A stretch of 64,000 nucleotides of DNA from Candidatus Obscuribacteraceae bacterium (GTDB lineage: Bacteria > Cyanobacteriota > Vampirovibrionia > Obscuribacterales > Obscuribacteraceae): positions 192,001 through 256,000 of the forward strand of contig JBGASG010000003.1 of assembly GCA_044229845.1 (NCBI GenBank). Direction: 5' to 3'. Both the position numbers and the translations under genes were made by a program. Positions 16,438 through 41,672 of this stretch are shown here, one piece after another; position 1 is the first letter of the stretch, and each line of letters begins with the position of its first letter. The notes below the pieces were generated by a model. It made no database searches and was not told the DNA's origin. It saw nothing but the letters and a program-made list of their open reading frames with translations.

Positions 16438-17403
16438 TTGCAAGTGGTTATATACCATCCAGCGGCAATCGGTGACGTTTTACTGGCGACACCCGTCGCA
16501 CTGGCTCTGAAGCAGTACTTTGTTGATTGCCGAATCACACACGTGACGCATGCATCACTTTTTCCGCTGCTCGCCTGTTGTCCTTACATAGATGAGCTGG
16601 CGCCGGTTTCCGGCGGTCTGCTGGAGCGGCACAAAACAGTTTCTTCCTTTAAACCAGACCGCGTCGTCGATCTGTCTGGGTCTCTGAAGAGTCGCATCGT
16701 CACGTTTGCCAATGCACCAGATACGGTGCACTACAAGAAAGAAGCGAAAGCCGCACCGCCGATGATGCACGCCGTGGAGAACTTCCTGCAGACTCTGTCC
16801 GATTGGGGCGTGCCGACGCCGCAGCCGGCGTTTCCTACCCTGCCCGGATATCGCTTGCCGCCATCACCGTTGCCGGTGGCAGCGGAGACCATCGCTCTGG
16901 TTCCCGGTGTCGGCAACTTGCGCCCGCACCGCGCCTGGTCGAAAGCAAAGTGGATCGCTTTAGGTCAGAAGATCATTTCCGAGTTAGAGCGCCCGGTGAT
17001 TTTGATTGGCGGCGAAGCCGAGAGAAATCTGTGCGATGGCATTGCATCACAACTGGGCAGCGGTTGCACCAATGCTTCCGGACGTTTGAGCCTGCCGGAG
17101 AGCGCCGCCGCCATCTCGGCTTGCGACATGCTGATCTCAGGCGATACCGGTCCGGCTCACCTGGCGGTTGCAGTCGGAACGAAAGTAATCGGACTGTATG
17201 GACCGACTTTCGCCGAGCGAAGTGGTCCCTACGGGCCAACCAACCGAGTCATCAGCGTCTCACATGAATGCGAGTGCAAACAACTCAAGCAGTGTAGATT
17301 CAAACTAGAAGACGGGCGCTGTATGGACCAGATTACCTACGAAGCAGTCTACGAGCTTCTGCTCACGGCGTCCGGCGAGACGGTCGCGAAGTCGATGCAA
17401 TAG
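16438..17403 (+). CDS. glycosyltransferase family 9 (heptosyltransferase-like)
   Basis: AIGDVLLATP, HAVE, DTGPAHLAVAVG and LYGPT motifs. Start estimated at TTG 16438 after GAGGT. Confidence 0.88.
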   Translation: MQVVIYHPAAIGDVLLATPVALALKQYFVDCRITHVTHASLFPLLACCPYIDELAPVSGGLLERHKTVSSFKPDRVVDLSGSLKSRIVTFANAPDTVHYKKEAKAAPPMMHAVENFLQTLSDWGVPTPQPAFPTLPGYRLPPSPLPVAAETIALVPGVGNLRPHRAWSKAKWIALGQKIISELERPVILIGGEAERNLCDGIASQLGSGCTNASGRLSLPESAAAISACDMLISGDTGPAHLAVAVGTKVIGLYGPTFAERSGPYGPTNRVISVSHECECKQLKQCRFKLEDGRCMDQITYEAVYELLLTASGETVAKSMQ

Positions 17404-20400
17404 GTGGTCCAGTTGCGTGCGAAATCTTCGTGCGACATCTGACGAACGACTTCAAGCGGCAGATCCATCGGGAAAGCAGCAACGCTGCCGTTCTTGCGGT
17501 GGATATATCTGTAGGCATGACCGTGACGATAATCGTAGGTTGCTACAGTCATCCATTGTCCGTTGATGTACATCTCCAGTCTGGTCATGTAAGCGTCATG
17601 GGATTCAGACTCGATGGAGTTGATACGGCAGGACTGCGAGAGCGTCTCGATGAAGGGCTTGGGCTCGTTTGATTGAGATTCTGTTGGCAGCAGATTGGTT
17701 TCCGCTGTGCAGAGTGTGGCATTGTTGGCGGCCGACGCCAGTCTGTTCATCAAGCGGTATTGCTTGATCTCTTCTTCGGTCGGCAAGGTGACCGTTTCAC
17801 CCCTGCTCAGGCTGACGGTCGGATGGCCGGTGGTCGCGTCACGCTGTTCGGATAATCCGTTGACGCGCGCAAGCAACGGCCACATGGTCTGGTCTTGCAT
17901 GAGCGAATCACGCAATGCGATCGAACGCAGAGTATCGCCGAGACGAACACGGTAAACGCGTCTGTCTCCCTGCTGGGGCGGCTCTGTTGTGTCGAATTGA
18001 CCTTCCAGATCTTGTAACGAGACCGCCTGGCGGTGACCCGCACTGCGGAGCCGTTGCAAGAAGGATGCCACTTCCTGCTGGTTCTGTTCGTAGGAAATAG
18101 TGGTCGGCGGCGCATAGGCTTCGGTATTGTCGCCTTGCATTATCTCCACCTCGGGGAGAGTCACCTTTTCCATTTCCACTTGTGGGACAGTAATCGCTTC
18201 GGGGGCGACGCTGATGGCGGGAGCACTTTGTTGCTCACCAGCGGCGGTGCCACGAGCGAAGAAATGCTTTCTATGGATGTCCAATTCGGCATCTGAAGGC
18301 AACCAGATTACCTGGTCAACCAGCAGGTGCGGCGTCTTGTTGTCCGGAAGCATGTAGAACCCTGCTGAGCCGCGGTTGATAGTAATGATGAGTTGCGCAA
18401 ACCGCTCGTCGCCGAGCTGAACGCGCGCGATGGACCGGATATTGTCGCCATAACGCACCGTATAACGGCGGCGGCGGCGACCCGCAGCCTTGAACAGGTT
18501 TTGAGATTTTTGCGATTGAGAAACTTTGGCGGTACGACGGTCGCCGAAATTCAGCCCGGCTTCGGCAATCTGCATCATCCAACTTTGCAGCTTGTCAGAG
18601 ACTTGCTGATTGTTGCGAGTCGTCGATCCGGTGACGCGATCAGTGTTCTTCGCATCTTTCTTGATGGTGTCGAAATCGTCGCGATTGCCGTCGGTGCGCT
18701 GACCGCTCTTCGGTTCTGTAGACTGGATGCCGTTACCTACTATGCGGCGAGCCACATGCTCGTCTGTGCGAACAGCTTTATCTTTGCCTTCTGTCTTGCT
18801 ATCACGATCGCGCAGCGAGTTTTTGTCGGCCTTGTCGGTGCCGATGGCCATACCGAAGATTTTTGCCACGGCGTCCAGAGGACGGGCGGCTTTCGGCGCG
18901 GTTGTGTCGACTCTCTCAGTACCGGCTTTAACCAAGCAGTTCGGCTGAGTTTTGACGAGGTTGGATTTCTCGGCGATGACGTTGTTGCCGACCGAGGTCT
19001 TGGCGCCTTTGACACCACCAGGACCGGCGATCAGTTCGGCTTTGCTGACAGGCTTACCGCTCGTGTCGCCAGTGGCGATTGCTTTGTTGGCTTTGCCTGT
19101 CGTCGGGATTGCTTTGGCATCAGCCTTTTCGCCGGACAGTTGCTTGACGGAGGAGATCGATTTCGGGGAGGTGATGGCTTTGACGGCTGCATCGCTGATT
19201 ACGACCTTGCCGCTCGATTTTCCACCGACTCGCGCCGACGAAACTTTGGCGTCGGCTCCGGTTGCCATCACCATGCCTTGGGCATCGCCCTTAGCCGAGC
19301 CGGCGATTTTGACACCGAAGCGGCTACCGACCAGAGCTTTGATATCGGCATCGTTGAGAGTCAGTTTGCCGGTGGTACCAATCTTGGCACCCGAAATAGC
19401 CTTGATGTCAATCTTGTCGGTGGTAACCAGTTTGCTGGTGCCGAAGCGAGTGCCGATGATGGCTTTAACATCGGCATCGCTGACGCTCAACTTGCCGCTG
19501 CCAATTTTGATCGCCGAGACCGATTTGCCCTCTGCCTTCTTGTCGCCCACAACGACAAACTTGGCAGCATCTGCAGCACCCCCCCTGCCGCCGATGGTTC
19601 TGGTCGCATTGGCAATCGCTTTGGCATCGATTTTGATTTCGGTCTTCTCAGCCAGTCTGGAAGCTGCTGGTCTGGTGCCAGTGATGGTCTTGCCTTCGAC
19701 GAGGGTAGACACGCCGTTGCCTGACTTGGAACCGACCAGGCGTGCACCGATCGAACGGTCAGCGCCTTTTTCAGTGATGCCCTTGTCGGCAGCGGCTCCA
19801 CCCTTGGTTGCGGCGATGCCCTTATCGGCGACGACTCCACCCTTGGTTGCGGCTGTGCCCTTCTCGGCAACGACTCCACCCTTGGTTGCAGCGATGCCCT
19901 TGTCGGTTGCGCCAACCACCGGCACAGCTTTGCCGCCGGCGATTTTCGCTTCCGGTCCGACCACTTTGGTACCATTCTTGCCTTCGCCGGCAATCTTCTC
20001 GCCACCTAGAGTTCTGCTGATGGCAATGACTGGCTTGTCGCTTGCGCCCGCAACTCTAATGCCACCAGATTTGGCGTCACCAGCTTTGACCACTTCGATT
20101 TTGGGGGCATCGCCTTTGCCTGGCTGAACCTTAGCGGCAGCGATGTCTGCGGCGCGAGTGGTTCTGGTCGGGAACACGCCCAGCGTGCCGTTACCGGTCA
20201 CTTTTTCAGGCGCCAGTTTTGTAGTTGTTGTGCCAATCAAGCGTGTGCTGGCGGTGGAAATTTCATTAGGCTTAACAGCAGGCTTGCTGGCGAGCATGTG
20301 TTGACTGTCGCTACCAGGTTTAGCTTCCTTGCCGCTATCCAGGCGAGCTCTGGTCGGAAGCTGATCTCCTTTGTTTGCGACTATGGCAGTGCGGCTGGCT

Positions 20401-22649
20401 TCAACTGCGCGCGTCGTAGAAGCCGGGTTGACTGATAGAGCGGTGCGCTCGGTAGGCTTGCCGGGGACAGTAAGAGCGCTGGAGCCTTTGTCCAGAGCGG
20501 TTTTGGCTGCCATGGCTGTCGGTCCGGCTTCCGTCCTCACTACAGGCTTTTGATTCGCAGGAAGTTTTTCTGGTGTGCCAGGTTTTGCATCATCTGGCTT
20601 ACGAATGATGCCCCTCGACAAATCTCCTGCCGCCGCGCGAGTCGACGCCGCGCCTGCGATGGCTTCGCTGATGAGCTTACCCTGCCCAGGAATGACGACT
20701 ACAGGTTTTGCGACATGGTCTTTGATCTCGTTGGGCAGCACTGGTATCTTCGGATCAACTTTTGAGGAAAGGGGGATGTCTTTCGAAGTTGTAGACGCAA
20801 GCGTTGGTTGGCGAAGGGCGTTTTGGAAATCACGGAGAGTTGGAATCGGTCTTCCACCAGCAGTGGTATCATTACCTTTGCCGACGTCAGGATTGTTGGA
20901 AGCAGTTCTTGTAATGGCAGGAATTGGTGTTGGATTGATTTCGGGCTTTTGGACTCCAGTGCTAAATGCCGCCCGAGCTTCAGGAGTACGCGCCGCTGAA
21001 TCTCCCAAGTTGCGTGCGCCAGCCGCAGGCTGACTATAACCCCGAGCTTGATCGTACAAAGCATTGGTGTAAGCAGGGACTGGCTGCCCTTCCTTAGTGA
21101 CGATGGGTCGGCCCGATACCTTGACGTCAGTCGCCACGGTAGTTGTTTCTTTCGGGGGTAAAACAATAACGCTTTGACCGCTGTTAGAAGCGAGTCTGCG
21201 AGCTTCATAGACCATACCTCTCTCTTGGACTGTCGCAGCTACTTCAACTTTTCTGTACGGACTCAGACGGTCTATGCTGCCAGGTGGCTGCCCGATTGCT
21301 TCTGATATAGCGGTAGTGACGTCATTGCCGGTGTAAACGGCTTTTTGCCCCACGAATGGTCTCGTTGCGTTTCCTAACATTTGGGCAGCAGTTCCCTGTC
21401 CTGTGACAGCCTGGCTGTTGACAGACGGCGCTACATCGCGTGACGTCGGAAGAAGTCCCAGATTGCCAGGCGAGAGGACAGTTGTTGTTGCCGTGAACAA
21501 TGTCTGTGCCGCACTCGCTGCGTCATTCAGAAGAGGAGCTTTGGCAGCGGTCGTATCACCACTGAGTGCAGTCAATGGCTTGGAGGCAGAAAGAGAAGCA
21601 GGTCTCTGACCCGCATCAACGGTGTCACCAGTGATCCGATTGGCGCCAACTGCGGTTGTATCGTCAGACACGACGCCAGCAGTTCTGCGGATTCCGCTAG
21701 CGGTATCAACCACCGCTGGGGCAGCATCGCTACCGAGAGCCTTGTCGGCCAGGTTGGCGGCAGCGACACCAGCGGTGGTGGCAATCGGAACAGTTAACGG
21801 TGCGCTGCGCAAGACCGGTTGATCCGCCGAGGACAGGCTGCTAGGCAGCACCGGATCCGCGTTGCCGGTGGTCGCGGCTTTAACAATCGGTTCGGAACTA
21901 ACAGGTCTTGTTTCTGTCGGTCCAACCAAATCCGCACTGCTGGTTGCATTCATCCAGGTTTTTTCGGCAACTGTCGGTTGACCAGCAGTCGCGATCAGGT
22001 CAGCAATTCTTTGCTGGGGCTGTGGTTGCTGGTCCGGGAACTGCGTGTCGTTGGCGGAGTTAAGTACGGTCTTTGATGCGATATCGGTACCCAATGTTCT
22101 CTGCGGTGCGACAAATGATTGTGCTTCTATTGCCTTGCGAACTTCCGGACGCATCTCGGTCAGACCGGTAATGAACGTGGTGCCACGCAATTGCCGACCA
22201 TACGCATCCAGTGGGGTGTAACCGACTGAATCAGACTCGAGAACTGGGCCACTCTTTTGAGCTTGGGTCACCAAAAATCTGGCCGAGTTACCATCCTGAC
22301 CCTGAACTTCAATCACTCTATTTGTGCCGGTGCTGCCCGAGAAGTCTTTCGATTTGTCTACCGAGAGATTGCCAAAATTGAAAGCGCCGCCTGGCCCCAG
22401 AAGAGGACCGGCAGCTGGCTGGGACGCGGGTAGCGTCGGGATTGTGGTGTCATTGGTGGTACGACTGAGGGTCGGGCTGCTGCCGAGGCGAAAGGCTGCG
22501 AACGCGTCGACTGCCGGAGCTGGTTGAGTTTCGCTGGGAGCGGTCGAGACGCCCGGGAATTCCAGCCAGTGTTTCTTATCCGGGTCATCTGCTGACGCCG
22601 GTGGCTGAATATTTGTTTTGTCTGAACCAGAGAGTTCTTCCAAGGACAT
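17349..22649 (-). CDS. giant low-complexity protein, paralog A (two LysM-like domains plus conserved C-terminal domain)
   Basis: 1766 aa, no signal peptide, Ala/Gly/Lys/Thr-rich body. Contains YTVRYGDNIRSIA, YRVRLGDTLRSIA and a terminal ..DLP......EDF..NW..YC..F. Confidence 0.85.
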   Translation of the reverse strand: MSLEELSGSDKTNIQPPASADDPDKKHWLEFPGVSTAPSETQPAPAVDAFAAFRLGSSPTLSRTTNDTTIPTLPASQPAAGPLLGPGGAFNFGNLSVDKSKDFSGSTGTNRVIEVQGQDGNSARFLVTQAQKSGPVLESDSVGYTPLDAYGRQLRGTTFITGLTEMRPEVRKAIEAQSFVAPQRTLGTDIASKTVLNSANDTQFPDQQPQPQQRIADLIATAGQPTVAEKTWMNATSSADLVGPTETRPVSSEPIVKAATTGNADPVLPSSLSSADQPVLRSAPLTVPIATTAGVAAANLADKALGSDAAPAVVDTASGIRRTAGVVSDDTTAVGANRITGDTVDAGQRPASLSASKPLTALSGDTTAAKAPLLNDAASAAQTLFTATTTVLSPGNLGLLPTSRDVAPSVNSQAVTGQGTAAQMLGNATRPFVGQKAVYTGNDVTTAISEAIGQPPGSIDRLSPYRKVEVAATVQERGMVYEARRLASNSGQSVIVLPPKETTTVATDVKVSGRPIVTKEGQPVPAYTNALYDQARGYSQPAAGARNLGDSAARTPEARAAFSTGVQKPEINPTPIPAITRTASNNPDVGKGNDTTAGGRPIPTLRDFQNALRQPTLASTTSKDIPLSSKVDPKIPVLPNEIKDHVAKPVVVIPGQGKLISEAIAGAASTRAAAGDLSRGIIRKPDDAKPGTPEKLPANQKPVVRTEAGPTAMAAKTALDKGSSALTVPGKPTERTALSVNPASTTRAVEASRTAIVANKGDQLPTRARLDSGKEAKPGSDSQHMLASKPAVKPNEISTASTRLIGTTTTKLAPEKVTGNGTLGVFPTRTTRAADIAAAKVQPGKGDAPKIEVVKAGDAKSGGIRVAGASDKPVIAISRTLGGEKIAGEGKNGTKVVGPEAKIAGGKAVPVVGATDKGIAATKGGVVAEKGTAATKGGVVADKGIAATKGGAAADKGITEKGADRSIGARLVGSKSGNGVSTLVEGKTITGTRPAASRLAEKTEIKIDAKAIANATRTIGGRGGAADAAKFVVVGDKKAEGKSVSAIKIGSGKLSVSDADVKAIIGTRFGTSKLVTTDKIDIKAISGAKIGTTGKLTLNDADIKALVGSRFGVKIAGSAKGDAQGMVMATGADAKVSSARVGGKSSGKVVISDAAVKAITSPKSISSVKQLSGEKADAKAIPTTGKANKAIATGDTSGKPVSKAELIAGPGGVKGAKTSVGNNVIAEKSNLVKTQPNCLVKAGTERVDTTAPKAARPLDAVAKIFGMAIGTDKADKNSLRDRDSKTEGKDKAVRTDEHVARRIVGNGIQSTEPKSGQRTDGNRDDFDTIKKDAKNTDRVTGSTTRNNQQVSDKLQSWMMQIAEAGLNFGDRRTAKVSQSQKSQNLFKAAGRRRRRYTVRYGDNIRSIARVQLGDERFAQLIITINRGSAGFYMLPDNKTPHLLVDQVIWLPSDAELDIHRKHFFARGTAAGEQQSAPAISVAPEAITVPQVEMEKVTLPEVEIMQGDNTEAYAPPTTISYEQNQQEVASFLQRLRSAGHRQAVSLQDLEGQFDTTEPPQQGDRRVYRVRLGDTLRSIALRDSLMQDQTMWPLLARVNGLSEQRDATTGHPTVSLSRGETVTLPTEEEIKQYRLMNRLASAANNATLCTAETNLLPTESQSNEPKPFIETLSQSCRINSIESESHDAYMTRLEMYINGQWMTVATYDYRHGHAYRYIHRKNGSVAAFPMDLPLEVVRQMSHEDFARNWTTYCIDFATVSPDAVSRSS
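19770..19910 (-). repeat. 39-bp (13-aa) tandem repeat DKGIAATKGGVVA in paralog A
   Basis: CCCTTGGTTGC recurs at 19801, 19840 and 19879. Confidence 0.85.
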
Positions 22650-23059: not shown

Positions 23060-23063
23060 GCAG

Positions 23064-26000: not shown

Positions 26001-26879
26001 GCCGGAGTCCCTTGCCACGGCAGTGTAATCCGGTTTCCATCCCTTGTCGTCGGCGGTCACGCCATAGTCTGGTTTCCACCCCTTGTCACCGGTGGACACA
26101 CCAAAATCCGGCTTCCATCCTTTGTCACCGGCAGCGGTGGCACTATTCACCACACCGGCCTTATCTGAGCCAACTGAGCTATCGCTCAAGAGTTCTTTCG
26201 ACCGAACGATCGCTCGGCTGGAAGTGTCGGCAACATTGTATGCGGTATCAGTGGTCCTCGCCCAGCCTACGGCAACGGAATTGCCTGGCGAGTCCAACGA
26301 CTTGTCGGCAGGCGCGACTCGACTGCCGATTGAGCCCGGTGCATCATCTGCTTTTGTGGAGGTGAGAGAAATATGCTGTGCGCCGGCGTCCACTAGTCCG
26401 GCCGCGCCTTCGACAGGCTTTCCTGGTGCCTCGACAGGGTAAGCTGGGTCGGCATTGTTGACACCAAGACTCAAACGCTCGGCAGCAGACAGAACCGCTC
26501 GTTCGCCTTTAGAACCGGTTGATTCGGGTTCAACGCGTTTTCCAGGAGCCGGTGACAGCACAACTGAGACACTATCATCGTTCGAAGCGCGCAAAAGACC
26601 CGTCAATAACGGAGAGACTAGTCTTGTGTGTGTCGGCTGCGAAGTTTGCGAGTCACTCGCCGGTTGAGGCGATTGTCCTGGTTGTGGGCCGACTTCAAAA
26701 CCTTGAGTGAGTGTGTGCGACTCTTCATTAGCGGGCAATTGCATTCGCTTTTTAATCGTATCGCTGTCATCAGGACTGCGGAGATCGACACTATCGTGTG
26801 CCGGTCCCGACGATCTAGTTGAGTGCTCGACTGGCTGCTCTGTTTCTTCAGAGTGATGACGTTCTTGTCTTGCGACCAT
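23064..26879 (-). CDS. giant low-complexity protein, paralog B (coiled coil, two LysM-like domains, conserved C-terminal domain)
   Basis: YVIQPGDTLESIA, RRDNVEKILG, ARLGETLNSLARRHP and DLPLPVIKELAHNDL...W..Y. Start set at ATG 26879. Confidence 0.85.
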   Translation of the reverse strand: MVARQERHHSEETEQPVEHSTRSSGPAHDSVDLRSPDDSDTIKKRMQLPANEESHTLTQGFEVGPQPGQSPQPASDSQTSQPTHTRLVSPLLTGLLRASNDDSVSVVLSPAPGKRVEPESTGSKGERAVLSAAERLSLGVNNADPAYPVEAPGKPVEGAAGLVDAGAQHISLTSTKADDAPGSIGSRVAPADKSLDSPGNSVAVGWARTTDTAYNVADTSSRAIVRSKELLSDSSVGSDKAGVVNSATAAGDKGWKPDFGVSTGDKGWKPDYGVTADDKGWKPDYTAVARDSGTGSKGETSSTSYTGWKLDPSPANATSWKVVDAGQTKDVGWLNVADAKPGAYNKVVDNLGSWALNEILQKVDKYFKVDTGNVGSKPVESAIGSNVEKRGWVEKPGADKPGADKGLVPLPGNGPKEKRDDFQKLDSLDVRKPQAFKVDKLDREESTATVKPQPGKVEPIRSKDEAPSKLNLSTKLDLPVKLDLPKKLDLPTKLDWQTKPDLLAKLDLRGKENFVVGQKDLAVESKVDKSLPALKERLPLVSSTKELVQDRPQQIREFQQKLDQLVFIGKPSAESDRRGPQERVDRAVLFIPPHEVRIQARLELLDQTRRTLGESKVENGSRRNEPHEFRVIDRTLKGAGENPQIKREDLPLGRPREGKVEQPGEPRPNGKIEMQLGKKEIDGAKKDAEVGKKSVESKRETVKTEGTETGVKIQIITPKGPGAIAEEDTAKKKGKKLFGEDDEDANLQPPPEETKKKPDDDTPQVVLTQPLSPLENTQEETSSQAQVCEDELDAEERRQRNLAILAASSPNANDPNQSQQSQTNTQASGNGGSSPQIDPSTVLPTIELTDQASTVLPVPVESTVDAISEIEQRYDIEMDAYAAHAATIQAMRERELLGYEMREQEQRQERERLAEERNARRQRELEENDRRMALLAQKRKSAQVASDKIANARVTYVIQPGDTLESIARRMLSDKRLSGLVFDLNRSAIPWRIESGRRYLALKPGLTIQLPNHVDITRYKASKRTTTLPFGYDVMPGTTTPATTHTLPSEQAARQKTRRDNVEKILGPLSSSVDEPAYCIARLGETLNSLARRHPHLQDESLWFLLAEVNNLSQETDAIGRAKARLTRGMKLRLPSSQQILEFRSKQCTPAKTADADATQTTIAETRRDVVCEHVFLDQNIRLLIARDRISMNEVQYSLQIFVADWQCVRSYEESHSGNWIRHQYDRYGAVRSFALDLPLPVIKELAHNDLYGAWEGYVSEYLAISSTKTA

Positions 26880-27080
26880 CAGGATTACCTGCTGAGGCCG
26901 AATGCGGCGATGTGATTCACTCACGCTGCGAGCACGCGCGAAAAGAATCATTTAGTAAGTATGGGGCGGGTGTCAGTACGATTGTACTCACAACGCCGGA
27001 ATTGTCTGCTATCCACAATACATTTCCGGCTCTGCGCACACGAATACGCAGAGAGTTAATCTACTCAGACGAAATCTGTT

Positions 27081-33000: not shown

Positions 33001-36000
33001 TTGGCGACCACGACCGGTTGATCAGTTCCGCCCGTTCCTTTCTGGTCGACTTTGACTTCTTTTCCTGGCGTGCCCGGGGTGCCACCAGCTACAGCGTCGA
33101 CAACTTTCGGCGCCTCGACTCTGAGTTTTTCCGCCCCATCGCGGGTGCGGGTATCACCGGCAGGAGCCGTTACGATACCACCAGGGTTTTCAACCAGCTT
33201 GGTATAGGCATTTCGGATCGCGCCATCGTCAGCACCCTTCGTTTCTTTAAAATAGGTATTGACGGTTTCGGGAGGCAGAGTAGAGAGATACTTAGCCTTC
33301 TCCTCCGGCGTTTTATAGGTATCTAGTTTGGTTTGTATTTCAGCTGACGTCGGCGGCTTCGCCGAGCTGTCTGTACCGGCACCCACTCCATTGTTACCTG
33401 TATCCCCTTTTGCGGGTTTCTCAGGGACGATGGTGGCAGCGCCGACAGTATCTTTGTAATCGGTGATCGCCTTCGACAATCCAGCTTGGACGCCTGAAGC
33501 AATATCCGGGTTCAACTTAATGTACTTATCGGCAAACTGTTGTGCACCATGATCTCCGGTCACAGCCGCGTTGGCGGCGGCATTGGTCACCACCTGGGTG
33601 ACACCTTGCGCTTTCTCGGCCGCAGTCAAGTTCGGATTGTCTTTAATGGCTTGAATTCTGCTCTCTGACACTACCGGGTCGAACTTAACTGGAGTCGGAG
33701 CACCGCCATTGGCTTGGGATGCCTGATAGAGATCCAGCACCTTGCCGCCTTTGTCGGTAGCAACGGAGCTGACGATGCCTTTGTTCACATCGGGAGCAAT
33801 TGCGGTTATAGAGTTCAGATAGTCAACCCGAGCTTTATCGTCAGGAAGCCCAGTCAGTCTGGTATTGATATCCGCTTTGAGCGCTTTTTCGTACTCCGAC
33901 TTGGCTCCGCCTGACAGTGTGGGAATCACGCTTGATACCAGACTTTGCTGACTTTTGTCACCGGAAGTAGCAAGTTGCGCTATGTAGGCACCCTGCTGTT
34001 CAGGCGTCATGGTCTTCAATTTCTCTTGCAATGCTGCCGGTGTCAGAGCTTCGACACGCGGTGTATTGCTGAGCAATTGAGCAGCTTCCATAGCGCGGGT
34101 GGTGTCTTTGTAGGTGTCTAGAGCGCTGCCCTGCAACTTATCTACGTACGGCTTCACGGCTGCGATGCCGTCTGCCGAGGTGGAAAGCGAAGCAAGATAC
34201 TTCGCTTGCGCATTAGTATCATTTCCGAAGGTCTTAAGCTGAGCCTCAATTGTGGCGGCGCTGAGAGCGGGATCTGCCGGCTTAGGAACCACATGCGTTT
34301 CGAGAGGCGCGATTTGCTGCTCGCGCTGATCTCGCCGTGCACTTAAATCCACAGGCGCAGCGGGAGCACCCGGGACCGGGACAGTAGTGCCTTCTTTCGG
34401 AGGCACAGTGGTGCCAAGTTGGCGAGCCAGGGTCAGGTCGGACTGATCAACTAGTCCTTTTTGAACCAATGGATTGAGGGCTTCGGTGCGGGCTGCGGTG
34501 CGGGCAGCCAGATCTTGCGGAGATACGGGTCCTGTTTCGGTTGGTCCAGTGCCCGGCTTGGTCTGCGTGTGGTCACCGGTGGGAGGAACTACCGGCGCAC
34601 CATCTCTAATTTTTCCGAACTTATCCACAACTTCGCTTTGAGTGCTGCCATCTCCGGACGAGACATGTCCAAGAATGGTGGCACGCGCCTGTTCCAACTT
34701 AGCGCGCTGGTCATTGGCCGCGAGGACAGCCGGGTCGCTGCCGGCTGGTAGATTTTTGACATCCGTGGCCGGCGGTCTGACACCACCTTGCTCCGTCGCC
34801 GCAGGCTGACCGGCTCTGATCAATTCGGTGAGAGCCTGTCCATAAGACTGTTTGCCGGCGGCATCCAGCTTGGCAATTTCACCTTGCACTTCGGCGCGGT
34901 ATTGCGGTCCCATGTTGCTGACTTGGGCTAGGTACTGAGCGCGCGCGACCGGGTCGTCTTTGAATTTTTCGAGGTTGGCGGCAATGTCTTTTTTGGCGGC
35001 TTCGGTGAGCGGAGTCGTGGCACCGCCAGCGACATCAGTTGTACCGGCCAAACGCTTTGCTTCAATCTGAGCCGGAGTGAGCGGCGGGTTGGCTTGCAGG
35101 TCGCCTGTCGTCGGCATCCCTTGGCGGTTCTCAGCCGCGGTTGCAGGTACCGGAACTCCAGGCGAGTCAGCCGTCACCAGCATCAATTTGCCATCTGGTC
35201 CCTTCACCACCTTCGGTGCGTGGCTGTCGGCGGCAGGAATGGTAGTTGCAGGCAGAACAGTTTCGACAGGCGCTACCGGCTTTGCCTGTTCAAAGCTTTG
35301 AATCGGCTTGCCTTCTTTGTCATAAGTCTGAATCGGCTGCCCTGCCGTATCGAGCGGCGGAATCTGTTTGCCCGAGGTGGCATCAAATCTAGGTGGTACC
35401 ACCTGCCCGCTGGCGTCATACGTTGGAATCGGGTTTGGCTGAACCGCTTGCTCGAAACTCTGAATCGGTTTGCCGTCTTTGTCGAATGTCTGGACCGGTT
35501 TTCCTTCAGCATCCAGAGGGGCGATTTGCCGCCCACTCGTGGTGTCATAGCTGGCTGGAATGGGCTGTCCGGTCGAATCAAAGGTTTGAATCGGAGCAGG
35601 CTGAACGACCGCCGTATCGGTTACCGGTACTGTAGCACCTGAGGTGGTGTCACCTGGAACCGCTTGAGTTTGAGCGTAATCGATTGCAGCCTGCAGTTGC
35701 TCCGGCGTGGCGTTTTTCTGCCAGTCGGCGAGGTTGTTCGAGTTCAAGCCATTCAGGAAGCTGTAGTCGTTAGCAGCCACTTTGTCGCGATAACCGAAGT
35801 AGCCATTCAAATCTTCCGGGGATGCGGTGGCAAACCAATCAGATTGCGCTTCGTTGCTGAGCCGATCCACATAGCTGAAATCGCCGGCCGCCTGGCGATT
35901 TTTATAGTCCATGTACTTATTGAAGTCTTCATCTGATGAATTGACGATGAAATCGCTGCGGTTGGCTGGATTGAGGCGATCTACATAACTGTAATCACCG

Positions 36001-37412
36001 GCAGCTTTGCGCTCGGTGTAGTTGAGGTAGGAGTTGAATTCTTCATCGGTGGAGTTGGTGATGAAGTTTGTGTAGTTGGCGTCGTTCAGCTTTTCGGTGA
36101 AGCTGTAATCGCCGGCATTGATTTTGTCTTTGTAGTTGACATAAGCGTTCCAGTCGGCATCGCTGGCATTCAGTAGAAAGTCGTCCTGATTTGCCTGACT
36201 CTCCTTATCCAGGAAGGAGTAGTCGCCGGCGTCAATCTTGTTTTGATAGTTGACGTATTTGATGAAGTCGTCGGTGGACGAATTGACGAGCCAGTCAGTC
36301 TTAGCGTCTGGCGGCAATTTATTGACAAAGCTGTAATCGCCGTTGGCAATCTTGTCTTTGTAGTTCTGATAGCCCTGGAATTCAGCATCGCTGGAGTTCA
36401 TCATCCAGTCGGCTTTCGCTTCCGGCGTCATCTTATCGACATAGTCGAAGTTGCCGGCCGCTGTATTGTCCAAATATTTCCGGTAGGCGTTCCACTCGGC
36501 GTCACTGGAGGTCTCGATGAAATTCATCAGATCGTCATTCGACATGTTGTTGACGAAGCTATAGTCGCCGGCCTGTTTGCGCTCTTCAAAGTTCCAGTAC
36601 GCCTCAAAGTCAGGCGTGCTGCTGGTGGCCATCCACTGGGCGCGGTTTTCGGGGCTGAGTTTGTCGACGAAGTTGTAGTTGCCGTTGGCAATGTTGCTCT
36701 CGTAGTTGGCATATGCAGCCAGGTCTTGCGGGCTGGCCGTCGACTTCCACTGTTGATACTGCTCTTCCGTCATCGTGTTGACGTAGCCGTAGTCTCCAGC
36801 TTGCTTGCGCTGCGTGTAGGCTTCGTACTCTTTCATCACCTGAGCGTATTCAGGGTTGGTTCGATACTCTTTTGCAACTTCGGTATCGGTGGCGAACATC
36901 GCATCGAGGTCGCTGTAATCACCTTTCGCGTGGCGGGCATTGAGTTCCGTTTGGCGGGCGGCATAAGATGCCTGGTTGGCGGTCAGGGACGCGAGAAGCG
37001 TCGCGTCCCCACCGGCTGCAGCAATCTGGGCGGCGCTCAACTCCGGAGAAACGATGGCGCCCGGAAGCAGATCGGGCTTGCCGGCCAAGCTGGCGGGCAG
37101 CGGATTAACGGCGAGCGAGAGGTCGGCAGCATTCAGGGTGCCGATGTTTTTGTTAGCCAGGTCGGTCGGCAGAGCCGTGCCGGTCAAGTCGAAGTCGGTA
37201 ACAAACGGCAGCGCACCGAATTGCTGAGCATTCAGCGACAGCGTGAACGCTTCCTGGTTGGCCGGGTCAGCTCCGTCGGCGTCTGAGTGCAACGTCTCTG
37301 AGGTCTGGTCGTCCTCTGTCGTCGTCGCATTCGGGTCGTCGGTAGCGTCAGCTGCCGGGTCAGTTGTTTTCTTCTTGCTGGGATCTTCAGGAGCGTCTGT
37401 TACTGGGGCCAT
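27081..37412 (-). CDS. giant multi-repeat protein, paralog C (3443 aa; two LysM-like domains plus conserved C-terminal domain)
   Basis: YVVLQGDTLESIA, RRANVESLLG, CRLGDTLRSVAMRHP and DLPPHAAKELAENDISAHWEKY. Several internal repeat families. Confidence 0.88.
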   Translation of the reverse strand: MAPVTDAPEDPSKKKTTDPAADATDDPNATTTEDDQTSETLHSDADGADPANQEAFTLSLNAQQFGALPFVTDFDLTGTALPTDLANKNIGTLNAADLSLAVNPLPASLAGKPDLLPGAIVSPELSAAQIAAAGGDATLLASLTANQASYAARQTELNARHAKGDYSDLDAMFATDTEVAKEYRTNPEYAQVMKEYEAYTQRKQAGDYGYVNTMTEEQYQQWKSTASPQDLAAYANYESNIANGNYNFVDKLSPENRAQWMATSSTPDFEAYWNFEERKQAGDYSFVNNMSNDDLMNFIETSSDAEWNAYRKYLDNTAAGNFDYVDKMTPEAKADWMMNSSDAEFQGYQNYKDKIANGDYSFVNKLPPDAKTDWLVNSSTDDFIKYVNYQNKIDAGDYSFLDKESQANQDDFLLNASDADWNAYVNYKDKINAGDYSFTEKLNDANYTNFITNSTDEEFNSYLNYTERKAAGDYSYVDRLNPANRSDFIVNSSDEDFNKYMDYKNRQAAGDFSYVDRLSNEAQSDWFATASPEDLNGYFGYRDKVAANDYSFLNGLNSNNLADWQKNATPEQLQAAIDYAQTQAVPGDTTSGATVPVTDTAVVQPAPIQTFDSTGQPIPASYDTTSGRQIAPLDAEGKPVQTFDKDGKPIQSFEQAVQPNPIPTYDASGQVVPPRFDATSGKQIPPLDTAGQPIQTYDKEGKPIQSFEQAKPVAPVETVLPATTIPAADSHAPKVVKGPDGKLMLVTADSPGVPVPATAAENRQGMPTTGDLQANPPLTPAQIEAKRLAGTTDVAGGATTPLTEAAKKDIAANLEKFKDDPVARAQYLAQVSNMGPQYRAEVQGEIAKLDAAGKQSYGQALTELIRAGQPAATEQGGVRPPATDVKNLPAGSDPAVLAANDQRAKLEQARATILGHVSSGDGSTQSEVVDKFGKIRDGAPVVPPTGDHTQTKPGTGPTETGPVSPQDLAARTAARTEALNPLVQKGLVDQSDLTLARQLGTTVPPKEGTTVPVPGAPAAPVDLSARRDQREQQIAPLETHVVPKPADPALSAATIEAQLKTFGNDTNAQAKYLASLSTSADGIAAVKPYVDKLQGSALDTYKDTTRAMEAAQLLSNTPRVEALTPAALQEKLKTMTPEQQGAYIAQLATSGDKSQQSLVSSVIPTLSGGAKSEYEKALKADINTRLTGLPDDKARVDYLNSITAIAPDVNKGIVSSVATDKGGKVLDLYQASQANGGAPTPVKFDPVVSESRIQAIKDNPNLTAAEKAQGVTQVVTNAAANAAVTGDHGAQQFADKYIKLNPDIASGVQAGLSKAITDYKDTVGAATIVPEKPAKGDTGNNGVGAGTDSSAKPPTSAEIQTKLDTYKTPEEKAKYLSTLPPETVNTYFKETKGADDGAIRNAYTKLVENPGGIVTAPAGDTRTRDGAEKLRVEAPKVVDAVAGGTPGTPGKEVKVDQKGTGGTDQPVVVAKPDKGPPTADALIADAKARDAVVKESQTRIEGLQREIMAREQMLQLTKGSDAEKAKLQAALADVNGAAQGVKGDGKGGPDGRGAADGGAAGGKPLTIDQMREEIAKHVLSASSPAEQAKWEQAGRRLDFLEKTAGGVVTDSSGNRFAASVLAAGGMHLDEKGVLVNAGGKPVFSGLNRDGMIDSMGTVFTKVGGTGLPMAPGTGRGEVGVSLTGKDGVIIGKDGVVIGGKDAGVVGIGRDGAVLRMDPTTGRPMLDPVTGKPIFDFPGGKHDGMVLRGEMSGIAGPLPPGARLEIGGRDGFVRIDPATGKPIDGIRLDANGKPIEGLRIDPITGRAELVGGKGELGGIGRQAIDPTTGLPIKGSIGLDGIPIGKFDAKGMPITADGKAVALPPGSTIGPGGVIVPGPLGKGGIAADGTGAVLKDAQGNVINPTTGQSLINIPGFGQQPTGANLPGAGGKDPGNVPGAGGAGGAVQMQPINLPGVQITGAGGTVVSGQQNSKDPGQQGGQTQAPGTSVSVNNGTGTGQVAGPGSGVVTATSGTVVVGMTVTTGKDSISAGGGLSVSGVGLNSAGGINIAGGATVTGGVSLTGATALGDKTGLPGTGATIPGGKELAPGTNTATATAQAVTDPNAAQTNFAPPAAQNPSGDRKIVLDGSGKSATTADGTVVTVDANRQITSSNATVYIDNRKGFAITDGGGVIFVDKNGNLKVLLDELPADSQQATGNSKAISWQDSTGQQYTTANSHVVSIDNGTVTKYGDEPHVIVLSPDGRPVSSGDTTTIILNGTRPTGVGDDVVVVIDRNPNVGSGNIVYVSPDGKPLESSSGTLVWVDQTGQTQGSNVHVFFTDPNGHPIAQDSSSTPTGTTVVIGGQLVTHNPQDVDNIPPDVLSQMLKDIGITTSSGTAIPTNNTSTDTSTQIGTGTQTGTQTQTGTEIKTGDTTQTGPTTGTTTPPDTEIKTGDTTQTGTTTGTTTPPGTEIKTGDTTQTGTTTGTNTTTTNPDGNPIVPISGEIVVKIEPTPTPTPTPTPKSDVEVTPKPEPTSTPVTKPDVEVTPKPEVKPEPKPEPLPVPKGNDVTPTVSHEPDIVVHVQVGDSSSHSTSQPVSHSDGGYSSQEPIVHETSSGTVVYSNQEPVSHQTQPGYSVVDAVVDIAIGSQSGQPVQAHSEPVANQDVVTAQPKAHTDVEYSAGLGDISKAASTAPVPAYFDPMPAASSASFPLDDISHSSENFPHQVAEVTHKIDSETVEHSFIEAPAPRPIEDFAVSRPNDVAVKETTDNSASISQQTPANDLTPPFAPMLEPTVPPVTLPQAEQAGYSVADRLVANTNPPVSDPQPVMSDIDTPVAVQPIQSAAEPVNPFVDGMNQAIAPALDVAPIASHHDHDRDDDGAQPAISLPTLPVDVTTIGSAPLVELADPTVPGGLNTEAIIHDMEDRAEVGRLMGTSYDWKVEEINKYDEIEKERRERYELELAENRRRDQELREDREQRELEERAKRFSDAMLAAMATKKTRNPVEGLEENFVPEVRQKYVVLQGDTLESIAIKKLRDKRLAPLLYEINKHLIPSRMQGDIRYLQLSPRSVIQLPTQAEIRRFHARLFGRQSIKFQYEEAPEGMCNSSRATNPGLIRLGLLPAAAAAGQPKSEAEVEKDATRRANVESLLGSVAKTQAPPADGRIRYICRLGDTLRSVAMRHPALKDVTLWKLLAEVNELTTDVDGKGTPVAQIKRGTTISLPTLEEIESFKLKLKPPKTAGKAEQITAPQAPYSVPAESDPSMATTLQDVQIKIGDESQDVTQDPVVGGSGTVIVSDNTSDSATRVAASNVLPFVRPGDIVRYTPPGIATRDPDDATNSLLQAAGMVPREGQQLQKAVGDDRGQRNIIQHLSETCRIVNYGNTGEGDGAGFRTRLEVRQEDFWRPVVQYEVNADVTLRHEFSVTGKKTTSRIDLPPHAAKELAENDISAHWEKYSCNFQQGRKIAE
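30025..30206 (-). repeat. 66-bp (22-aa) Thr-rich tandem repeat TEIKTGDTTQTGxTTGTTTPP, 3 copies
   Basis: GTTTTGATTTCCGT occurs at 30061, 30127 and 30193. Confidence 0.9.
35661..36800 (-). repeat. ten 38-aa (114-bp) tandem repeats, consensus AGDYSFVxKLxxxxxxDWxxNSSxxDFxxYxNYxxKxx
   Basis: Ten consecutive gap-free 38-aa units in the N-terminal part of paralog C. Confidence 0.92.
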
Positions 37413-37612: not shown

Positions 37613-37636
37613 AAAAGGACCGGGGGGTCCCCGGTC
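37613..37636 (-). terminator. putative intrinsic terminator after paralog D
   Basis: Minus strand GACCGGGG-ACC-CCCCGGTC followed by CTTTT, overlapping the TGA stop. Confidence 0.55.
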
Positions 37637-40600
37637 AGGGTCGGGGCGCGCCCGCTGTCGAGGCAAACTTGTCACAGTAGACTCGCCAGTTGGACGTGAT
37701 GTCGTTTTCGGCCAGTTCCTTAGCGGCTTGCGGGGGCAAGTCGATGCGCACGGTGCGGCGGGAGCCGTCCGCGTTATACTCGTGGCGCAGAGCCACGTCT
37801 TCAAAAATTTCGTAACCGAGGACGGGCAGCCAGTAAGTGCCGGTGAGGCGCATTTCCAGTCGCAGCTTCAGTCCGTGCAGTTCTACCTCGCCGTGGCGAG
37901 ACACGCGCACTTGTTCGGATATCTGAACGGTGTCGGTTGGACCTTCGTCGACGCTGGCCGCAATTTGGGTTGTTGGTCCGTCACCACTGGTGGTGTCAGA
38001 ACGAACAACGCGAGTGCGATCATCCCGCATCATCGGCTGAGTTTCCGGGCCCGAGGTCGCCGCCGACGGAGATACCGGCTCGGTAGCCGCGCCACCACCT
38101 GCGAGGGCACCGGCAGCAGCCGCCGGTCGCGTTTGTGCTACCGTATTTGGTGCGAGTTTCACTTCCTCATCAAACGATCTGAAGCAGCCGGGACAGATGC
38201 TGGCACTAGCTATGGTGGCACGCCCGCAGCCACCGCAGTTTTTGGTCTTCAGATCGTGCGGCCCGCTGGCATAAACATTGGTCTTGCGATCGCCGCCGAC
38301 AGTCCTGGCCTTATAGGCAGCCACTTCCTCCGCGGTCGGAATGGCGATAGTCATGCCCCGGCGCAGAGCCGCCTGCGGAACACCCTTCTCATCCGTACGG
38401 GCGGTCATGTCGTTCACTTCGGCCAATAACTTCCAAAGTCCTACATCTTGCAGAAGCGGATGTTTCATAGACACCGACTTAAGCGTGTCACCCAGGCGCA
38501 CGACATAAGTGCTGCGACTGCCGGCTTCCTGCTTGGCGCCGCTCAGCGGTCCGAGCAACTTCTCGATGTTCTCGCGGCGCTTCTTAGCCGCAGCTACCGC
38601 ATCGGCAGCCAGATCTTCGAGATCTTCCCCGGTGGCTGCGGGCGCATTTTTGCCGCCCTGCTCGCCGTCCCAGTTCTCGCCGAACTTGGCAGTCAGTTCC
38701 TCTTCAGCGGTGAGTTTCTTGCTGGCTTCTCCGAAATCGAGTTTGACACCGCCGCCCGCTACCAGACGTCCACGGAATTCGCGAATTTCTTGAGTGGTAG
38801 GCAGCCAGATAACCATCTTCGGACGCAGCGCCACCACATCACGACCTTTGCGCTGGATGACGGGAATCACTTCTTTATTGATCTCATAGATCAAAGCAGC
38901 CAGACGTTTGTCACGCAGCATCTTGCTGGCGATGCTCTCCAGTGTGTCGCCTTCCTTGACGATGTACTTGGTGCGACGTTCGGGCTCCTTCTTGTCTTTT
39001 TCTTGAGCCTTCTCCTGCTCTTCCTTTTCCTTCAATTCCTGACGTTTCTTGGCGGCGATCAAAGCTGCCAGTGCGGCATCCTTTGCTTGTTGTTCTTCCT
39101 TGTCCAGACGAGCTTCCTCCTCCTCTTCCTCTTTCTTCTTCTTCTGCTTAGCCTGCTCTTCTTCGAGCGCCTTCATGGCGGCAGCCGATTGTTCTTTGGC
39201 CGTTGCCATATCTAAAGGATTGAGAGGATTGAGCCCGACATCTTTGATGCCGGCCAAGGAGGGGTCGACGCGCATGCCCAGCTGTCCCAGCGCGGCAGCC
39301 ATATCCGCCTGCGCCTTGGCAGCACCATCGACCTTGATGGCTGTCGGGTCGAGTTTGAGAGCAGCATTGAACTCTTTGCCGCCCAGGATGCCCGCAGTGC
39401 CCGCGTCTTTGAGACCCATGTCGCGAGTAATTTGCGACAGAAGGGTTGAGGCGGCTGCGTCTTTGATCGCCCCTTGATCCAGTTGGCGCACACCCTGAAT
39501 CAATACATCTATTGGTTTGCCTGTCAGTTGTGCCGCCATGCCCAGCTCGGAGGTGCGCAATGTTGTTTGCTGCAAAGCGCTGGGATTGAGTATCTGGTTG
39601 AGCACATCGCGCAGAGCAGGCGTCATATTTTTGCCCATCAGCTCTTGCTGCAATTGCAGCATGCGCACATTCATCGTTTCTCCAGCATTGAGCTTGACGG
39701 CAAACATGTCGCCTCGGACGTCTTTGAGACTCAATTGTCCCGGCAGAAGTCCCAGTTCGGCAGCCAGTCGTCCGTCTTGCATACGGCGGCCCATGATGTC
39801 GGCCACTGTCAGCCCTTCGCCCGGTTTCAATCCCAGTTGAGTATTCAGATCCTTGAGGATCTTGTTGAGTTCGAGGAAGAAGGCTTTGCCGCCCTCGCCG
39901 GTAAGTCCCTTATCCAGAGCCTGCTGATTGACCTTCAGGAAGTCGGTCAGGCGTTCGAACGGCGATCTCGGCACGCCACCATCGGCGGTGGTGCGTCCTT
40001 GCATCAGATCCATAAAGTTAGCCAGCTTCTGTTGCTGCAGCGCGTCCAGTTTACCCAGCCCTTGCGGATTGTCCAGTAACTGCTTGAGGGAGATGCCGGA
40101 CTTGTCCAGTCCGAGATCTTTCAGGATGTCAGCCATGCGCTGTCCATTAGGACCGAGTGCATCGAGCTTGCCGGCTTGAATTTTGCTCATCGCATCGAGC
40201 ATTTGCGCGCGCAGTTGAGGATTTTGCAGATCCATCTGCAACTGCTGCATGCGCAGCGCTTGCATCTGATCGCCGCCGCCCATACGGTCTTGCATCATCA
40301 TCTTCGCAATGTCTTGCTGCGACAAATTGCGGAAGTCTTGCTGAGTCATCTTGGCAAAATCAGGATTGAACTTGGCGAGATCTTGCTGAGTAAGCCTGCC
40401 GAGGTCGATTTGACGCCCGGTGGCATCGACCAATTTGCCGGTGTCGATCGGTTTGCCGGCGCCGTCCAGAATTACCGGCTTGCCGCTCACATCGACCGGC
40501 TTCACACCTACATCCACCGGCTTGATGCCGCCCGGCAATCCGCCATCGGGGCGGAATGTAGTCGGGTTGACTGTTCTCAAATCTTGAACCAGGTTGCGAA

Positions 40601-41672
40601 CATCATCGCGATTGTTGAAGTTGTAGCCGCCCTGAATCTGTCCACTGGCCTTCAGCTGGTCGAGCACGGCGGTGACACCCTGGGTGTGCCCATCAGCAAA
40701 GGTGAGGTTGCCGGTCTTCGGATCGTACTTGGTGGCACCGGTAGCATCCAAAATGGTCCTGGTGAACTGGTTGCCGCTTGGGTAGACCTGAGTATCGCCA
40801 GGCTTCGGTACGACGACTGGTGTGACTGCAGGTGTGTCTGCTTTCACAACCGGTGTGTCTGCCTTCACTACCGGCGTATCAGCTTTGACGACCGGTGTGG
40901 TGCCTGCCGGCGCGGCGGGAGCCTCGTACTGCACTCCGGAACCTTGCTTCCAGGTGAGACTGGCAGCCGGTTGGTCGGCGCCGGCCTGGAACGAAAGTTT
41001 TTTGTCACTCCTGTCGAACGAGAAAGAGGCGCCGTCCTTGGTGGTATAGACGGTCGTGTCTCCGCGGCGTGTGGACTGGACGCCGGTCAAATCGTGCTGT
41101 GCGGCAAATGCTTGAAACTGCGGTTGTTGAACCAGACCTTTCATCACACGGCTGTCGAGACCCTGTGCGAATGCGGCGACACTGCTGTCCGGCGTTGTGA
41201 CCGCGGCACCATCGCTGGTTGCGGCGCCGGCGGGGGCCTTCTCTGCGCGCACGACTGGAGCGCCGGCGATCGGCTCACCGGTCGATGGCTTGATTGGCGT
41301 GTAAGTCCCGTCGGTATTGACCGTCCAGGCTTCTTTACCGCCACGAGCATAGAAATTGGTCACCCCTTCGGCATTGGTGGTCTCGATGCCGCGCACCTTC
41401 TCGCCATTGATCTGCAATTCGGCTCGGCGTGCCAATCCGACGCCCTCACTGGAAGCGACGTCGGTGCGGAAGCCGGCAATGCGATCTTTCAGCTCGGTGT
41501 TGGAGCCGGGCACCTGATTGGTGGGCAGGTCGGCGCGCAATAGCCCCGCTGCCGTCTCGCCTGCCTGCAGGTCGTTGCCGGTGACGGGCTTGTCACGCCC
41601 GAGCTTCTCCACCTTGTTGGGATCGAGAGAGTCGATGTTGGGAGAACCTGGCTTTTGTTCGAGAGGCGGCAT
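37635..41672 (-). CDS. giant protein, paralog D (coiled coil, two LysM-like domains, zinc ribbon, conserved C-terminal domain)
   Basis: YIVKEGDTLESIA, RRENIEKLLG, VRLGDTLKSVSMKHP, CGGC-x10-CPGC and DLPPQAAKELAENDITSNWRVYC. ATG at 41672 has a GAGGA RBS. Confidence 0.87.
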   Translation of the reverse strand: MPPLEQKPGSPNIDSLDPNKVEKLGRDKPVTGNDLQAGETAAGLLRADLPTNQVPGSNTELKDRIAGFRTDVASSEGVGLARRAELQINGEKVRGIETTNAEGVTNFYARGGKEAWTVNTDGTYTPIKPSTGEPIAGAPVVRAEKAPAGAATSDGAAVTTPDSSVAAFAQGLDSRVMKGLVQQPQFQAFAAQHDLTGVQSTRRGDTTVYTTKDGASFSFDRSDKKLSFQAGADQPAASLTWKQGSGVQYEAPAAPAGTTPVVKADTPVVKADTPVVKADTPAVTPVVVPKPGDTQVYPSGNQFTRTILDATGATKYDPKTGNLTFADGHTQGVTAVLDQLKASGQIQGGYNFNNRDDVRNLVQDLRTVNPTTFRPDGGLPGGIKPVDVGVKPVDVSGKPVILDGAGKPIDTGKLVDATGRQIDLGRLTQQDLAKFNPDFAKMTQQDFRNLSQQDIAKMMMQDRMGGGDQMQALRMQQLQMDLQNPQLRAQMLDAMSKIQAGKLDALGPNGQRMADILKDLGLDKSGISLKQLLDNPQGLGKLDALQQQKLANFMDLMQGRTTADGGVPRSPFERLTDFLKVNQQALDKGLTGEGGKAFFLELNKILKDLNTQLGLKPGEGLTVADIMGRRMQDGRLAAELGLLPGQLSLKDVRGDMFAVKLNAGETMNVRMLQLQQELMGKNMTPALRDVLNQILNPSALQQTTLRTSELGMAAQLTGKPIDVLIQGVRQLDQGAIKDAAASTLLSQITRDMGLKDAGTAGILGGKEFNAALKLDPTAIKVDGAAKAQADMAAALGQLGMRVDPSLAGIKDVGLNPLNPLDMATAKEQSAAAMKALEEEQAKQKKKKEEEEEEARLDKEEQQAKDAALAALIAAKKRQELKEKEEQEKAQEKDKKEPERRTKYIVKEGDTLESIASKMLRDKRLAALIYEINKEVIPVIQRKGRDVVALRPKMVIWLPTTQEIREFRGRLVAGGGVKLDFGEASKKLTAEEELTAKFGENWDGEQGGKNAPAATGEDLEDLAADAVAAAKKRRENIEKLLGPLSGAKQEAGSRSTYVVRLGDTLKSVSMKHPLLQDVGLWKLLAEVNDMTARTDEKGVPQAALRRGMTIAIPTAEEVAAYKARTVGGDRKTNVYASGPHDLKTKNCGGCGRATIASASICPGCFRSFDEEVKLAPNTVAQTRPAAAAGALAGGGAATEPVSPSAATSGPETQPMMRDDRTRVVRSDTTSGDGPTTQIAASVDEGPTDTVQISEQVRVSRHGEVELHGLKLRLEMRLTGTYWLPVLGYEIFEDVALRHEYNADGSRRTVRIDLPPQAAKELAENDITSNWRVYCDKFASTAGAPRP

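Follow-up and report, generated by a model that had tools for sequence, protein, structure and literature searches.

Divergent DUF7718 domains at the ends of four giant LysM proteins

Cargo proteins of the type IX secretion system (T9SS), which cross the inner membrane first via the general secretory (Sec) pathway, are diverse large proteins that share a conserved, beta-rich C-terminal domain (CTD). Effectors of the type IV secretion system (T4SS) of Xanthomonadales carry a C-terminal domain of ~120 residues, the XVIPCD; according to the published account (PMC8740702), translocation depends on this domain, which binds the VirD4 all-alpha domain. Here we analysed a stretch of 64,000 nucleotides from a Candidatus Obscuribacteraceae bacterium (assembly GCA_044229845.1, contig JBGASG010000003.1, positions 192,001 to 256,000), referred to as a whole as the window, in which four giant proteins end in copies of one domain. 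The four tails are homologous copies and divergent members of the Pfam family DUF7718. By analogy, the XVIPCD may be regarded as their closest functional analogue, since both are folded C-terminal domains of ~100–120 residues, carried by proteins that are not otherwise related to each other; in both cases, the genome also codes for a VirD4-type coupling ATPase (here a 1437-residue protein matching TrwB_AAD_bind with E 3e-8). In contrast to the XVIPCD effectors, however, the putative cargo consists of giant, largely low-complexity LysM proteins and not of toxins; no sequence relationship or fold match between the two domains was detected, and the rest of a T4SS was not found.

The giants are encoded by four tandem open reading frames (ORFs) on the minus strand, all of them open: giant A (17349–22649, 1766 residues), giant B (23064–26951, 1295 residues), giant C (27081–37412, 3443 residues) and giant D (37635–41801, 1388 residues). 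For giant D, the ATG at position 41672 is the more likely start, giving 1345 residues instead of 1388. A first-pass annotation of the DNA had claimed that four paralogs end in an alignable C-terminal unit, which is borne out by alignment, Pfam and a family profile. The translated giants terminate exactly in the four tails quoted there, and alignment of their last 110 residues reveals 13 invariant columns (R, L, W, V, Y, R, G, DLP, D, W, Y). Over the C-terminal domain, the other three copies are 22, 22 and 43% identical to copy C.

Although not recognized in the first-pass annotation, the domain is catalogued after all. Scanning of the proteins with the DUF7718 model (PF24839, cut-off 25 bits) returned its best match for giant C (domain at 27084–27413, minus strand; E 4e-7, 30.3 bits), followed by giant A (17364–17681, minus strand; E 1e-4, 22.4 bits) and giant D (37641–37967, minus strand; E 0.03). 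In a six-frame search of the genome, copies C and A passed the cut-off with 37.1 and 28.2 bits, respectively. Giant D stays below the cut-off with 14.5/18.6 bits. The domain of giant B (23070–23396, minus strand) is too divergent for the Pfam model and gave no match, but it is matched by the family profile. Copies B and D are thus assigned to the domain family by the four-copy alignment and the family profile and not by the Pfam cut-off. When a hidden Markov model (HMM) built from the four copies was run against the 55,420 six-frame ORFs of the genome, a 5.16-Mb assembly that is 88% complete, it matched A–D only, the next candidate appearing at E 0.15. The genome-wide count called for in the first-pass annotation therefore stands at four copies, all in the window.

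AlphaFold2, supplied with a 34-row alignment of the four window copies and 30 short database fragments, produced a confident model of the copy C domain (mean pLDDT 89.9, pTM 0.81). The predicted fold comprises six strands and one C-terminal helix of 24 residues (residues 80–103), which bears the D-L-P ... N-D ... N-W ... Y motif. Comparison of the model with the Protein Data Bank (PDB) by Foldseek yielded nothing at E<=1e-3, the best of 48,161 chains in VIA-align reached a Z score of 5.6, which is within the noise range stated for this tool, and profile-based searching of PDB sequences reached no better E than 0.096. No enzymatic or DNA-binding family, the kind of match that had been named as speaking against a sorting role, was found for the domain in Pfam, NCBIfam or the PDB-sequence profile search, and the two structural comparisons gave none either. 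Look-alikes of the fold (Lpt proteins, DUF3836, a Xanthomonas T4SS-related protein with Z 5.4 and the type III chaperone ExsC with Z 4.6) lie within noise and were disregarded.

In a tree of the domain, the window copies are 0.3–1.6 away from their closest foreign sequences, a distance that leaves out the window's own copies and fragments of them, as compared to 3.4–5.8 from one another. Because each domain is nearer to foreign copies than to the other three, the four represent old paralogous lineages and not recent duplicates; it follows that the domain was retained on diverging proteins.

How do these copies compare with the rest of DUF7718? In addition to the sequence homology, by which C and A pass the Pfam cut-off, they are similar in size (~104 positions), and their nearest clusters in the protein atlas are all DUF7718. 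However, typical members are stand-alone proteins of ~105–118 residues, or form the N-terminal part of proteins of ~220 residues, and occur in other phyla. The window form, by contrast, is the last element of proteins of 1,000–5,900 residues, follows two LysM modules and is found in one order only. The domain is, accordingly, a new fused variant of a catalogued domain of this name.

The first-pass annotation had put the shared unit at ~95 residues. A domain of ~100 residues is indeed real, but the region common to all four giants is much longer, that is ~400–470 residues by alignment of the last 400–480 residues, and includes two LysM modules. The order is the same in each giant: a stretch rich in Glu, Arg and Lys is followed by LysM1, a variable linker, LysM2, a second linker and the terminal domain. 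The LysM pairs, all encoded on the minus strand, span 17778–18464 in giant A, including the linker between the modules (LysM1 18294–18464, LysM2 17778–17954), 23472–24014 in giant B (LysM1 23844–24014, LysM2 23472–23645), 27813–28427 in giant C (LysM1 28257–28427, LysM2 27813–27986) and 38334–38966 in giant D (LysM1 38796–38966, LysM2 38334–38507). Scores against Pfam LysM (PF01476, cut-off 20.9 bits) pass for A, B and D (22.0, 21.4 and 26.8 bits, respectively), whereas C remains below with 15.1 bits. All eight units carry the pattern Y-x-V-x-x-G-D-T-L-x-S-I-A ... L-P; compared with the Pfam model, they have an extended loop ahead of the last strand, rendering the matches partial. Between LysM2 and the terminal domain of giant D (37968–38333, minus strand), the linker contains a zinc-ribbon-like C-x-x-C ... 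C-x-x-C arrangement, and a similar C-x-x-C motif precedes the terminal domain in one database fragment (P0016).

Ahead of this common region, the giants differ. Their N-terminal 800–3000 residues are rich in Ala, Gly, Thr and Pro and low in cysteine (0.1–0.4%), and BLAST comparison of these parts detected no mutual match at E<=1e-3, in agreement with the earlier description of a constant C-terminus joined to a variable N-terminus. None of the four proteins has a signal-peptide-like N-terminus or a predicted membrane helix. Polymorphic toxins (Rhs, CDI, LXG) are likewise modular, with one constant and one variable end, but in the giants the polarity is reversed; moreover, no toxin or immunity family turned up in Pfam, NCBIfam or PADLOC scans. 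In giant C, nine G-D-Y-S-F-V-type motifs follow each other at a spacing of exactly 38 residues (residues 206–515, window positions 35868–36797, minus strand), which indicates that its N-terminal part holds an array of 38-residue repeats.

Occurrence of the domain beside a conserved ATPase locus

A search of 1.84 billion representative sequences with the domain profile retrieved 418 clusters at E<=1e-3, 247 of them at E<=1e-10. Among the 149 best relatives that could be fetched, the domain ends less than 15 residues from the end of the protein in 136 of 150 matches, and the host proteins reach 5,895 residues. Full-length relatives, i.e. those beginning with methionine and longer than 600 residues, numbered 77, and their N-termini were judged by a simple hydropathy rule and not by a trained predictor. 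Frequent Sec signals would have spoken against a tail-borne sorting signal; by this rule, none of the 77 has a Sec-like hydrophobic stretch within its first 50 residues, and a membrane-helix-like segment was seen in a single protein. In a Pfam scan of 34 of these relatives at E<=1e-3, LysM was detected in 23 and DUF7718 in 22, and no other family was detected.

As determined with the family profile, the fused domain is present in all 24 genera of the family and in all three sister-family genomes of the same order, with one to five copies per genome, and in none of 13 genomes from other families of the class. Hence, among the genomes surveyed, the fused form is confined to one order. A HerA-like ATPase encoded next to the giants in the window follows nearly the same distribution (22 of 24 family genera, 3/3 sister-family genomes, 0/13 other genomes of the class). 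The genomes counted here are kin and not independent, so these figures describe a pattern and not a statistic.

Upstream of the giants and on the same strand, the window contains four further genes, encoding two VirD4-like ATPases of 891 residues (50661–53336) and 1437 residues (46264–50577), the HerA-like ATPase and a small acidic protein. Both VirD4-like proteins begin with a zinc ribbon, followed by a low-complexity region rich in Pro, Ala and Ser, two predicted membrane helices (residues 229–247 and 370–388 in the shorter, VirD4/TraD-like protein; 646–664 and 896–914 in the longer, VirD4/TrwB-like protein) and the P-loop domain, and both have TraD/VirD4-like matches in NCBIfam. The third ATPase (42896–46114, 1072 residues) is a soluble P-loop protein of the HerA/DUF87 type, as its DUF87 match indicates. 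According to Pfam, the three ATPases match DUF87 and TrwB_AAD_bind but not FtsK_SpoIIIE. The gene for the acidic protein (42001–42906, 301 residues), whose N-terminus is acidic and disordered and whose conserved C-domain of ~150 residues is mostly beta, overlaps the HerA-like gene by 11 nt.

To what extent this neighbourhood is conserved can be read from 66 related loci (one of them a 100% identical copy), 51 of which provide at least 3 kb of sequence 3' of the HerA-like gene and were used for the downstream counts. In 44 of the 51 loci, a gene ending in the domain lies beside the HerA-like locus. With respect to the ATPase operon, this gene is convergent (tail to tail) in 43 of the 44 cases, and the sole co-directional case is a near-identical relative of the window. 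Consequently, the four co-directional giants of the window are the product of a local inversion and expansion within a conserved neighbourhood. The acidic protein gene adjoins the HerA-like gene in 43/51 loci, and a VirD4-like gene is located directly upstream in 50/53. For the fused form, the expectation that the domain keeps company with the ATPases thus holds up, as it is syntenic and co-occurs with them across the family.

The HerA-like ATPase is exceptionally conserved. It is 78–84% identical across the genera of the family and ~60% across the order, and its median identity in the full set of 66 loci, distant group included, is 80%, whereas the products of neighbour genes (SelA, DinG, PHO4, Usp, GT9) reach 35–65%. 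This difference suggests that the system is under strong constraint, and it is probably central to the envelope or lifestyle of these uncultured bacteria. In the sister family, whose genomes are small, the HerA-like gene is multiplied to three to four copies. A role in anti-phage defence was also considered and rejected: on the ATPases, PADLOC hits were limited to the generic P-loop entries HerA and mad8, the giants had none, and a mobile defence island is hard to reconcile with chromosomal synteny throughout the family.

A possible docking function and its alternatives

The homology of the tails, their confidently predicted fold, their location at the very end of the protein, the absence of Sec-like N-termini, the co-occurrence and synteny with the ATPases and the two predicted helices in each VirD4-like ATPase were all observed, and together they form the basis of the reading that we tentatively prefer. 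That is, the domain may be a docking handle, which would assign some of the LysM-tailed giants to the conserved ATPase set as its clients; we regard this as possible, if short of probable. LysM domains normally function outside the cytoplasm. We infer that the domain binds a component of the set, either the VirD4-like and HerA-like ATPases or the small acidic protein, and that these ATPases translocate protein and not DNA. In doing so, they would move the C-terminal, peptidoglycan-binding end of the giants out of the cytoplasm, and the LysM modules would arrive, and end up, at the cell wall. The secretion or sorting signal proposed in the first-pass annotation finds partial, contextual support in this form: genomic context, C-terminal position and missing Sec signals speak for it, while the parts of canonical T4SS, T7SS and T9SS were not found and stand-alone DUF7718 proteins exist in genomes without the ATPase. 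Several observations weigh against the docking handle, and they are given here together with the alternatives on which they bear.

One group of such observations concerns known secretion machines. In the 88%-complete genome, VirB4 (PF03135) and VirB6/TrbL (PF04610) had no match, TrbI/VirB10 (PF03743) had only matches below the cut-off (best 33.5 vs 35 bits) and WXG100 (PF06013) was not found. On the four giants, neither Pfam (E<=0.1) nor NCBIfam (E<=0.01) reports a T9SS tail family, and a Pfam scan of the locus proteins recognized no channel-forming or outer-membrane component. In addition, relatives of HerA, FtsK and VirD4 are often DNA motors. For a canonical sorting signal, be it a T9SS CTD, the signal of a complete VirB/VirD4-type T4SS or a signal of the type VII secretion system (T7SS), the same absences are largely a refutation, leaving this explanation highly improbable despite the C-terminal location of the domain and the presence of VirD4-like ATPases. 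An assignment of the domain to the T4SS, T7SS or T9SS is therefore unsupported. Like the T9SS CTD, the domain is a conserved, beta-rich C-terminal element of diverse large proteins; however, none of the 77 relatives has the Sec-like N-terminus of such cargo, a Por_Secre_tail-type family is missing, and the lineage is cyanobacterial and does not belong to the Bacteroidota. With the T7SS (EccC/EssC), the locus has in common membrane-anchored P-loop ATPases with two predicted helices ahead of the ATPase domain, as well as substrates that lack Sec signals and would be recognized at their C-terminal end. It differs from the T7SS by the absence of WXG100 proteins and of FtsK_SpoIIIE matches, by single ATPase domains placed on separate proteins with a HerA-like partner, and by giant proteins in place of helical-hairpin substrates.

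A second group concerns DUF7718 proteins that are not fused. The nearest protein-atlas clusters contain stand-alone proteins of 102–118 residues from archaea, Verrucomicrobiota and Actinomycetota, and the Pfam model finds small DUF7718 ORFs in 4 of 200 other cyanobacterial genomes, none of which has a match to the HerA-like query. Since stand-alone DUF7718 occurs in genomes without the HerA-like ATPase, the fold is not intrinsically a secretion signal. In two of these four cyanobacteria, the stand-alone gene (~111 residues) overlaps or adjoins a conserved gene for a partner of ~85 residues (L080, 1483–2047; L081, 1269–1700), the product of which has a weak DUF5647 match, and these two-gene cassettes adjoin YhgA/Rpn-like or transposase-like genes. 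The domain of the giants might have retained the role of such cassettes, which could be toxin-antitoxin-like or regulatory, and would then serve as a regulatory or effector module that has nothing to do with the ATPases. The conserved small partner next to transposase-like genes fits this idea, as do the atlas neighbours, all of them small DUF7718 proteins. Yet no homologue of the partner was found in the genome of the window, no catalytic family or motif was detected in the domain, and the fused form occurs in a single order, where it is linked to the ATPase locus, all of which makes this origin of the function improbable.

A third group touches the tie between domain, ATPases and cell wall itself. 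One relative (G024), although 92% complete, has two domain genes, while neither a HerA-like nor a VirD4-like gene could be detected in it; no acidic-protein gene lies in the 1.3 kb that separate one of the domain genes (L007) from its contig end. A second genome (G002) likewise lacks the ATPases, although its completeness is only 58%. In the sister family, the domain giant is on another contig or not within ~12 kb of the HerA-like genes. Moreover, the genome of the window encodes further LysM-tailed giants that lack the terminal domain (C8:363817–368496; C22:185638–198120; C21:33279–38819; C1:27645–31124; C1:297894–301034), and the domain is consequently not the sole possible route to the wall. 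Among these domain-less proteins, a single one carries the two LysM units without any membrane helix, whereas five have a predicted helix shortly before LysM. The latter arrangement suggests a topology in which the giant part is cytoplasmic and LysM is external, connected by a membrane anchor; this anchor is absent from A–D.

These data can also be accommodated by a structural role, in which the domain serves as an end-piece for anchoring or oligomerization, caps the LysM module and binds an envelope or cytoskeletal partner or itself. The giants would then be static tethers or scaffolds, and the ATPases would act on another target, e.g. DNA, or use the giants as a platform. A compact fold of sheet plus helix is typical of interaction modules, and one to five paralogues per genome could build mixed assemblies. 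Other LysM-tailed giants manage without the domain, the locus offers no recognizable channel component, and synteny is kept in spite of the convergent orientation in 43/44 loci, which means that co-transcription is not required. What an end-piece leaves unexplained is how LysM modules reach peptidoglycan from proteins that have neither a signal peptide nor a membrane helix, why the domain is the last element of the chain, and why it is constantly linked to membrane-anchored ATPases resembling coupling proteins. On balance, we consider a purely structural role somewhat unlikely. Even so, a family of giant LysM proteins that is specific to the lineage would have been cleanly defined.

If the domain is instead a docking signal, it would define the cargo set of an undescribed ATPase-driven system, the parts of which have so far not been studied. 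It would provide the first functional context for DUF7718, and a tag of 100 residues would serve as a handle for finding the clients of the system, which is universal in a major lineage of cyanobacterial relatives that are non-photosynthetic and common in activated sludge. The docking function can be extended further: Obscuribacterales might possess a previously undescribed export or wall-anchoring machine, in which two VirD4-like membrane ATPases and the exceptionally conserved HerA-like ATPase are joined by a small acidic adaptor of new fold. This machine would seize the giants by their DUF7718 tail and thread them C-terminus first, so that LysM locks onto peptidoglycan. We deem this extended version unlikely; if true, it would represent a secretion principle distinct from types I to XI.

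The ATPase/giant locus appears to be undescribed in the literature searched. A full-text search found no paper on DUF7718, and no work combining Obscuribacterales and LysM was found. Judging by title or abstract, none of the publications listed for Obscuribacter and secretion systems deals with the locus, and a search for giant proteins or HerA in Melainabacteria returned nothing relevant. Looking up the clusters of six relatives gave no informative names, one being 'hypothetical protein'.

Further features of the locus

For the C-domain of the acidic protein (42034–42525, minus strand), AlphaFold2 likewise provided a confident model (pLDDT 91.5). Foldseek found nothing comparable among solved structures, and the best VIA-align hit had a Z score of 3.1; as judged from this model, the C-domain may represent a new fold. 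A lectin-like reading was rejected, as its protein-atlas neighbours are weak and share few common features.

Divergently transcribed from the ATPase genes is a gene for a coiled-coil, Pro/Gln-rich protein of 710 residues (53756–55888, plus strand), which is syntenic in 40 of 44 loci with enough upstream DNA. The last ~70 residues of this protein are 84–93% identical in several genera; family scans gave a weak phasin-like match and no further family. On the other side of the giants, the window also encodes a small LysM protein of the conventional type (11584–12276, plus strand; 230 residues), which contains a single membrane helix and matches LysM at full length (E 1e-7).

Contigs from sludge metatranscriptomes (four runs, two studies) cover parts of giants A, C and D, of the ATPase genes and of the coiled-coil gene with few or no differences. 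As RNA libraries can contain DNA, these contigs weakly suggest that the locus is transcribed. The same DNA (window positions 17000–56000) is present in many sludge and bioreactor metagenomes.

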